A stretch of DNA of 64,000 bases, from assembly GCA_016792845.1 (NCBI GenBank), contig JAEUKH010000018.1:202984-266983 (forward strand). The letters are read 5' to 3'. Origin of the DNA: Myxococcales bacterium (GTDB lineage Bacteria > Myxococcota_A > Polyangia > Polyangiales > Ga0077539). Within the stretch, counting starts at the first letter, position 1. Each line of letters opens with the position of its first letter. The notes below the pieces were generated by a model. It made no database searches, had not been told where the DNA came from, and saw nothing but the letters and a program-made list of their open reading frames with translations. Position numbers and translations under genes: made by a program. Positions 29,899-30,429 of this stretch are shown one piece after another.

Positions 29899-30429
29899 TC
29901 AGAAGGGGATGTCGTCGTCGAAATCGGTCGGCGGCATCGGCGCGCTCTGGCTGCGCCCCATCGACCCGCCCCCGTTGCTCACGGGCGCCGACCGCGCGGG
30001 CGCGGCCTGACGACGCGGCGCCGCGGCCCCGCCCGTGTCACCGCGCAGACGCGCCGCCCAAGCCCTCGCCCGGGCTGCGTCGAGGCGGCTCCACTTGCTC
30101 TTGGGGTTGCCCTTGGCGTCGGTGACGCCCTTCTCGTCGTCTTGCTGCGCGAACCAGTCGTACGAGCTCGCGAGCATGTCGAGAAACTCGGGGTCACACT
30201 GCGAAAACTTCTGCCCCTTGAAGTCGGCCCCCTGCCAACGCTTCGGCACGAAGCGCACCTCAGGGTCGCCGCGCGGGCCGTCGATGTCAGCGTCGAGGTC
30301 GCCCCCGCCGTAGCCCCCGCCGTTCGAGGCCGCCGCCCCCGGGCGCGCGCCCCCTTGGGTCTTCGAGGCTGCAAGCAACATGTCGAGCTTGCGTTCAATG
30401 TTCGCGAGACGTTCTTCTACCGTGCTCAT
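29899..30429 (-). CDS. hypothetical protein with an N-terminal coiled coil, Gly-rich linkers and a C-terminal SSB-like acidic tip (…DFDDDIPF)
   Basis: MSTVEERLANIERKLDMLL…; the last 8 residues DFDDDIPF are identical to the E. coli SSB C-terminal tail. No OB fold is evident. Immediately downstream of the MVP homolog. Confidence 0.6.
   Translation of the reverse strand: MSTVEERLANIERKLDMLLAASKTQGGARPGAAASNGGGYGGGDLDADIDGPRGDPEVRFVPKRWQGADFKGQKFSQCDPEFLDMLASSYDWFAQQDDEKGVTDAKGNPKSKWSRLDAARARAWAARLRGDTGGAAAPRRQAAPARSAPVSNGGGSMGRSQSAPMPPTDFDDDIPF

Follow-up and report, generated by a model that had tools for sequence, protein, structure and literature searches.

[quoted passage not shown] The protein belongs to an uncharacterised and widespread family, a new variation on the principle of the SSB-tail hub, with an origin in phages and a regulated chromosomal offshoot in Myxococcota. 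The best explanation of the data, which we put at a probability of roughly 45%, is that the protein is a multivalent presenter of the SSB tail (an 'SSB-tail surrogate') that came out of phage recombination modules and was domesticated by Myxococcota. The steps of this account that go past sequence, predicted fold and gene context are inferred.

Results

The gene and its C-terminal tip

The open reading frame, its putative ribosome-binding site and the tip are located as follows.

29899..30429, minus strand: 176-aa open reading frame of the SSB-tail protein, ATG at 30429, TGA stop at 29899-29901
30438..30444, minus strand: Shine-Dalgarno-like AGAGGGG, 8 nt before the ATG, read from the sequence
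29902..29925, minus strand: C-terminal tip DFDDDIPF, aa 169-176; the sole similarity to SSB models falls in this C-terminal tail

The product reads MSTVEERLANIERKLD...PPTDFDDDIPF (longer excerpts of its two ends are MSTVEERLANIERKLDMLLAASKTQ...SAPMPPTDFDDDIPF). The GC content at codon position 3 is 0.86, with 0.87-0.93 in the neighbouring genes and an overall GC of 0.706 in the window, and 109 homologues were found at E<=1e-3, almost all of them in metagenome-assembled genomes of Myxococcota/Polyangiales. Third-position GC like that of the neighbours, the AGAGGGG element and the homologues together led us to take the ORF as a real gene, confirming the original prediction of a non-SSB protein that carries the SSB tip. 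The predicted coordinates also proved to be correct: an alternative in-frame GTG at 30492 would give a 197-aa product, but the homologues all begin at the M-x-x-x-E-[ED]-R-L helix, which leaves the longer start unsupported.

DDDIPF is the highly conserved C-terminal hexapeptide of SSB and acts as its interaction motif (PMC5872125). The match of the window protein to this tip is not a chance one, since the IPF ending is kept in 88/101 of its close homologues; most of the 13/101 that do not have it look truncated or frameshifted. Across 247 family members the last six positions are D (51%), D (54%), D/E (75%), I (58%), P (72%) and F (80%), and the tip is thus under selection across the family. 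Within the Myxococcota clade nearly every tip is an exact D-D-[DE]-I-P-F, whereas in the phage subfamily described below [ILVM]PF is found in 36/118 members (∼30%) and an aromatic residue at the end in 80/118. The low share of [ILVM]PF among the phage members indicates that the exact SSB tip is not essential to the ancestral function of the family. The type of tip did not correlate with the type of partner gene in the phage loci. In a few family members (P0114, P0107 and P0240) a D-[DEQ]-[IV]-P-F motif is internal and followed by 10-100 more residues; these are likely to be read-through or frameshifted gene calls, although they could be true extensions that bury the tip.

Many of the phage members end in other acidic-aromatic tails (...GGGW, ...DAGF, ...EVTW), as would be expected if the acidic-aromatic C-terminus had arisen by convergence for a non-SSB partner, with the protein acting for example as a protease adaptor or a phage structural protein. 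We regard this as highly improbable. The Myxococcota clade keeps the exact D-D-[DE]-I-P-F, the tip is preceded by an SSB-like linker, and the genes beside the phage members encode proteins of recombination and replication, among which there are known clients of the SSB tail.

Domain organisation and predicted structure

An AlphaFold2 model of the window protein was built on a 36-sequence alignment, and divides the chain before the tip into four parts.

30358..30420, minus strand: N-terminal amphipathic helix, aa 4-24, with an EERLxxIExKLDxLL heptad pattern (AlphaFold2 pLDDT 81-89)
30289..30357, minus strand: Gly/Ala-rich linker 1, aa 25-47 (pLDDT <50 for aa 27-41)
30034..30288, minus strand: conserved core, aa 48-132 (pLDDT >90; its profile matches 936 cluster representatives)
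29926..30033, minus strand: disordered A/P/G/S/R-rich linker 2, aa 133-168 (pLDDT 42-54), resembling the disordered linker of SSB

The N-terminal helix, with its heptad positions L8/I11/L15/L18, is strongly conserved within the Myxococcota clade in the alignment and, from the model, is presumed to be an oligomerisation element. Linker 1 varies in length across the alignment. The core consists of a ∼35-aa non-helical segment, an acidic helix and then a basic helix (RLDAARARAWAARLRG); the first helix has a net charge of −6 and the second of +4 (SKWSRLDAARARAWAARLRG). A model of the core only, based on 66 diverse sequences, reached a pLDDT of 89 and a pTM of 0.78, and in it the ∼35-residue non-helical N-terminal segment packs on the two long helices. 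Beyond the core, the AlphaFold2 disorder spans aa 133-170, so that the window protein has the disordered Gly/Pro/Ala-rich linker of the SSB type; across the family this second linker has a median length of 33 aa and is composed of 19% A, 16% P and 12% G, with S also common. The layout read from the sequence alone, a helix, linkers and a globular core, was therefore borne out by the model, with the correction that the core comprises about 85 aa and not 75.

No OB fold was found: Pfam gave no match on the window protein and the predicted core is helical. Searches of Pfam, NCBIfam, PHROGs and PADLOC with both the whole protein and core-only sequences assigned it to no family, the SSB models of NCBIfam and PHROGs giving weak matches that cover the tail alone. 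No relative of the protein or its core was detected in the PDB by sequence or by profile, and no similarity of the core fold to known DNA-binding domains was detected. Profiles and structure prediction thus agree with the expected absence of an OB fold, and a divergent SSB paralogue is not indicated. Judged on the predicted structure, the window protein lacks the N-terminal OB fold of SSB (PF00436) and should not be classed as an SSB; by sequence, it may be likened to the C-terminal half of one. Bacterial SSB, an OB-fold tetramer, shares with it an identical C-terminal hexapeptide, an A/P/G-rich linker of similar length and an oligomerisation element (predicted here), and differs in that the family has, instead of an OB fold, an unrelated ∼85-aa helical domain without Pfam or PDB relatives, which is acidic in the Myxococcota clade.

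The same domain order as in SSB, a folded domain followed by a disordered A/P/G linker and an acidic tip, raises the question of whether the family is a true ssDNA-binding protein with a new, non-OB fold that replaces SSB, in which the core would bind ssDNA, the helix would oligomerise, and linker and tip would act as they do in SSB. We consider this somewhat unlikely. Aromatic and basic residues of the core are conserved in the alignment (W65, W124, R59, R115, R120, R122 and R127) and would suit an ssDNA binder, as would the mildly basic cores of the non-Myxococcota (phage-type) members, with a median pI of 8.1. However, the core has just ∼85 aa, is mainly a two-helix hairpin and has no relative among known DNA-binder folds, and in the Myxococcota clade it is acidic, with a median net charge of −2 and a median pI of 5.1. 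The gene context, considered below, bears on the same question.

A large family with a phage connection

A core-only profile was searched against 1.84 billion cluster representatives (clusters at 50% identity) and returned 936 of them at E<=1e-3 and 779 at E<=1e-10. The family motif, D-L-D-G-x-x-G-[DN]-P-x-V-[RK]-x-x-P-x-x-W-x-G ... S-x-C-x-P-E-[FY]-L ... R-x-D-A-A-R-A-R-[AG]-W, is present in the window protein. Nearly all members have 120-200 aa and the same order of N-terminal helix, linker, core, linker and acidic-aromatic C-terminus, the core being preceded by a median of 42 aa and followed by a median of 36 aa; of 248 fetched members, 209 have an aromatic last residue and 172 finish with [ILVMS][PAG]F. 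All are labelled 'hypothetical', none has a Pfam domain, and the cluster listings contained no informative member names. A library search of known defence and anti-defence families gave no match to the family. In the literature that we found, the C-terminal tip of SSB was studied on SSB itself, and no account of a family of this kind came up when we searched for mimics or decoys of the SSB tail.

Most of the non-Myxococcota members that were fetched lie on phage contigs, and contigs of the family encode integrase, repressor/Cro-type HTH proteins, small terminase, holin, HNH and endonuclease VII. A single homologue, itself uncharacterised, is present in the BFVD and comes from an uncultured Caudovirales phage, and 38 IMG/VR viral contigs were retrieved through one conserved peptide pattern (from an 18-sequence subset of the alignment). 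When a phage-type member was used as a tblastn query, nothing matched among the INPHARED phages or the PLSDB plasmids, so that at this sensitivity the family is missing from these deposited records. The phage connection that had been hinted at from the window sequence is therefore real, with the family found in phage recombination modules.

Gene neighbourhood in phages

Same-strand neighbours were analysed in 39 non-redundant phage loci by our own ORF calling, which is crude in viral loci, and clustering. The recurring partners and their positions relative to the family gene are listed here.

20 loci, position −1 in 14: ∼500-aa 5'-3' exonuclease (PF02739 + PF01367) with a RecT-like C-terminal half (phrog_4171/561)
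8 loci, position −1 in all: DUF2800-like exonuclease (phrog_69)
4 loci, position −1: RecT (PF03837)
3 loci, position −1 or −2: YqaJ exonuclease
4 loci, downstream at +1 or +2: NinB/Orf mediator (phrog_72)
Several loci, farther downstream: SNF2 helicase, DnaB, DnaC-like loader, replication initiator

Three more loci, for which the gene calls were independent and the Pfam annotation precomputed, show integrase and repressor genes, then an exonuclease and, directly after it, the family gene, with a faint RecT match in one and a faint NinB match downstream in one. The start codon of the family gene overlaps the stop codon of the upstream gene (ATGA, TGATG, GTGA) in about 17 of the 39 phage loci, and in a single prediction, P0167, RecT is joined in frame to a complete family member, which may be a true fusion or may have come about through an error of assembly or the loss of a stop codon. 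The ∼500-aa exonuclease-RecT fusions (L042:438-1976, L085:8496-10001, L051:3287-4786 and about 17 other viral loci) are an observation in their own right and would unite a Pol I/FEN-type 5'-3' exonuclease and an annealing activity in one polypeptide.

The family gene takes the slot commonly held by phage ssb genes beside recombinase genes, a further likeness to bacterial SSB, and this position also favours the ssDNA-binding alternative. In 38/39 phage loci no canonical SSB was detected within the 8-10 kb covered on each side, which fits an ssDNA binder equally well as or better than an adaptor, although ssb could lie elsewhere on the phage genomes. The remaining locus, L078, is the single case with an adjoining canonical OB-fold SSB, located immediately downstream and ending in DLDDSDPLPF, and the last residues of its family member are TDETYED, so that the aromatic tip is missing (L078:7803-8336 and L078:8523-8945); a family gene beside a canonical SSB argues against simple redundancy between the two.

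NinB/Orf and many exonucleases work on SSB-coated DNA. RecT-type annealing proteins functionally need the last ∼7 residues of SSB (bioRxiv 10.1101/2020.04.14.041095). As RecT needs the SSB tail and the small protein with its SSB-type linker and tip is made together with it, a tail-presenting hub is the simplest reading. In their neighbourhood, on the same strand by exonuclease and annealing genes and sometimes directly before NinB/Orf, the family genes resemble the accessories of phage Red/RecET systems (lambda Gam, lambda Orf/NinB, P22 Abc2 and cognate phage SSBs such as SPP1 G36P), although the library and structure searches that were run revealed no similarity to Gam, Orf/NinB or Abc2.

Inhibitors of host nucleases, such as lambda Gam and P22 Abc2, are common in phage recombination modules, and the family could be a decoy whose tips titrate host clients of the SSB tail (ExoI, RecJ, RecQ, PriA, chi) off SSB-coated DNA. 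In phages such a decoy would shield 3' recombination intermediates or disturb host replication, and in Myxococcota it would be a regulated brake. A host-identical SSB tip on a scaffold without a recognisable DNA-binding fold would be well suited to this, and so would the multivalency expected from the N-terminal helix and the dedicated palindrome described below, which suggests the tight control expected of a potentially toxic titrator. On balance we think it unlikely, as the start-stop overlap with the exonuclease/annealing-protein gene and the fusion to RecT indicate that the protein cooperates with a tail-binding protein of the phage itself and is not purely an inhibitor, a simple decoy has no need of a strongly conserved 85-aa core, and the gene is stably retained among housekeeping genes across a whole bacterial lineage. 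Of the proposal that the protein is an adaptor or decoy for the SSB interactome, a tail-mediated role is the part that stands, being the most economical; the location in pro-recombination modules and the start-stop overlap fit a protein that works with the recombination proteins better than one that acts against recombination, and recruitment to the vault-like neighbour is unsupported.

Chromosomal copies in Myxococcota and their palindrome

Both the window copy and the related genes in Myxococcota stand alone on the chromosome, outside the exonuclease/annealing module of the phages. At about 34 related Myxococcota loci (including P0018, P0071, P0005 and about 30 more) the neighbours are unrelated housekeeping genes, for example IMPDH, a MurJ-like flippase, hisIE, SecA, an HMGL-like enzyme and formate-dehydrogenase/NADH-oxidoreductase-like subunits; synteny is local and common to sub-clades only, and no phage genes are present near these copies. 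Neighbour-joining trees of the 90-aa core did not distinguish a monophyletic Myxococcota clade from one nested among the phage members; the identity of members to the window protein declines gradually, from 0.58 to 0.54. A second chromosomal clade, in Polyangiaceae (MNATQYEEMLSLL..., ending in E[DE]MPF), was observed at L034:7836-8333 and L036:3018-3521 and also in L035, and in two loci its gene lies directly upstream of a sucC-like gene (starting MKIHEYQGKQLFARYG). The chromosome of Sorangium sp. So ce388 holds a prophage-like copy of the family with a 318-aa ORF before it.

Upstream of the window gene lies one further element.

30529..30543, no strand assigned: perfect palindrome TGACAGAATATGTCA, TGACA-N5-TGTCA, centred 107 nt upstream of the ATG

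TGACAGAATATGTCA has a single match in the 64-kb window. When upstream regions were aligned by eye, (G)TGACA-N5-TGTCA(C) was found ∼100-115 nt before the start codon at nearly all Myxococcota loci (L003, L008, L010-L014, L018-L020, L023-L030, L032, L033 and L039), followed by TGGCG and, ∼22 nt later, by a GCAnGGT-like element. Allowing <=1 mismatch, there are 25 matches in 489 kb of related loci, and since 21 of the 25 are directly upstream of the family gene, the gene carries its own candidate regulatory element wherever it is located. From its sequence, the palindrome is a candidate operator or promoter element. The LexA box of M. xanthus is CTRHAMRYBYGTTCAGS and that of E. coli CTGT-N8-ACAG; compared by eye, the palindrome fits neither of these boxes, and likewise does not fit the mycobacterial RecA-NDp motif. 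A sigma-54 reading of the TGGCG...TGC element was rejected because its spacing is wrong.

A palindrome with 5-bp arms that travels with the gene (21/25 matches at the gene), together with a predicted dimerising helix and a +4 helix, would also be compatible with a dimeric dsDNA-binding regulator that acts on its own palindrome through the basic second helix, with a tip that is for example self-inhibitory. This seems to us most improbable: the phage members are in operons without such a palindrome, the fold is unlike known DNA-binding domains, and the exact conservation of the SSB tip would be left unexplained.

The vault-like neighbour and other genes of the window

The gene upstream of the small ORF encodes a vault-like protein, and a hairpin lies between the two.

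30630-33377, minus strand: vault-like gene, 915 aa
30548..30589, minus strand: intrinsic-terminator-like hairpin downstream of the vault-like gene, with the stem at 30553-30589 and then U5 at 30548-30552

The 915-aa protein carries MVP shoulder, Vault_3 and Vault_4 domains and a long coiled-coil-like C-terminal region; bacterial homologues of MVP have already been described (bioRxiv 10.1101/872010). The hairpin has a 17-bp stem and a folding energy of −36.5 kcal/mol (z = −5.5), and 0/200 shuffled sequences were equally stable. A simple scan for consensus sigma-70 promoters and terminators gave nothing around the small gene and missed this terminator-like hairpin, which was found by folding. 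After the stop codon of the vault-like gene the order is thus hairpin and U5, 5 nt, the palindrome at 30529-30543 and a leader of ∼100 nt.

The adjacency to MVP recurs just in contigs that encode the identical protein, that is in the same species, and an MVP-like neighbour is absent at the about 34 other related Myxococcota loci. With the adjacency limited to one species, these loci without MVP, the hairpin between the two genes and the small gene's own palindrome, the suggested link to the adjacent vault-like protein is unsupported. As one part of the best explanation, and as tentatively as the whole of it, we regard the small gene as an independent transcription unit without a functional link to the vault-like gene. 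The tempting tie between bacterial vault-like proteins and DNA repair thereby loses its support.

Four other ORFs on the minus strand were noted. Downstream of the small gene, 28751-29851 encodes 366 aa with a signal-peptide-like N-terminus and weak, sub-threshold matches to RHS/YD repeats and a myxobacterial Cys-rich repeat, and 27768-28490 encodes 240 aa that include several zinc-ribbon-like CxxC pairs and a hydrophobic helix at the C-terminus, its family matches being all sub-threshold. Elsewhere in the window, the ORF at 34829-35950 contains a tandem VSPT repeat (VSPTVSPTVSPTVSPTVSPAVSPTVSPTVSP) and is partly overlapped, in another frame, by a 187-aa ORF at 35488-36051 that resembles an ECF sigma factor; the two could form an anti-sigma/sigma pair.

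Discussion

Taken together, the data are best explained by a small oligomeric hub that would show the C-terminal docking peptide of SSB on a non-OB scaffold. The N-terminal heptad helix would gather several chains, the long disordered linkers would let several DDDIPF tips extend, and the tips, given their identity with that of SSB, would dock in the pockets that normally receive the SSB tail. Instead of coating ssDNA, the conserved helical core may bind another partner, which most likely belongs to the recombination machinery, and this is the weakest step of the scheme. The family would have originated in the recombination modules of temperate phages, where it would be made together with an exonuclease and a RecT-type annealing protein. 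The copy in the window would belong to a chromosomal Myxococcota lineage (Polyangiales-type metagenome-assembled genomes) that kept the exact host-type tip and gained its own palindromic control element, and it probably links proteins of the host SSB interactome to a separate task.

For the family as a whole we lean towards an adaptor or decoy that does not coat DNA, and to its cooperative, adaptor form. The choice of an adaptor or decoy over DNA coating follows from the tiny helical core without DNA-binding relatives, its acidic character in Myxococcota, the coexistence with a canonical SSB in L078 and a fold without a detectable relative. For the window gene itself the favoured reading is a domesticated hub for the host SSB interactome, because its clade has an almost invariably exact host-type tip, compared with ∼30% [ILVM]PF in the phage subfamily. 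The small protein thus probably engages the DNA-repair machinery through a borrowed SSB tail.

The nearest concept among known systems is the T7 gp4 helicase-primase, a non-SSB protein with an acidic, Phe-terminated tail like that of the gp2.5 SSB. In T7, both gp4 and gp2.5 bear such tails for the polymerase and address the same partner surface. A DTDF peptide that mimics the gp4 tail was used to place the gp2.5 tail on T7 DNA polymerase (PMC12339929). The parallel has its limits, as gp4 is a large enzyme with activities of its own and a tail sequence unlike DDDIPF, whereas the window protein is tiny, contains nothing that can be recognised as an enzymatic domain and ends in an exact copy of the host SSB tip.

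We hold a bolder version to be improbable: a new non-OB class of phage proteins, acting as hubs or in the handling of ssDNA, would have taken over the role of SSB in Red/RecET-like modules, its tail driving the exonuclease and the annealing protein, and one lineage would have been captured by Myxococcota under TGACA-N5-TGTCA, there rewiring the host SSB interactome, for example after DNA damage.

The C-terminal tip of SSB is the central docking peptide of bacterial genome maintenance, and here a large natural family (936 clusters at 50% identity) puts this peptide on an unrelated small scaffold beside annealing proteins that need the tail. Such a family would amount to an experiment of nature, showing to what extent repair proteins can be organised by the tail on its own. 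Members of the family are also candidates for the missing cofactor of portable phage recombinases in recombineering, especially in high-GC hosts. In Myxococcota, the window gene and its relatives would exemplify a phage recombination accessory that was domesticated by a bacterial lineage under an operator of its own.
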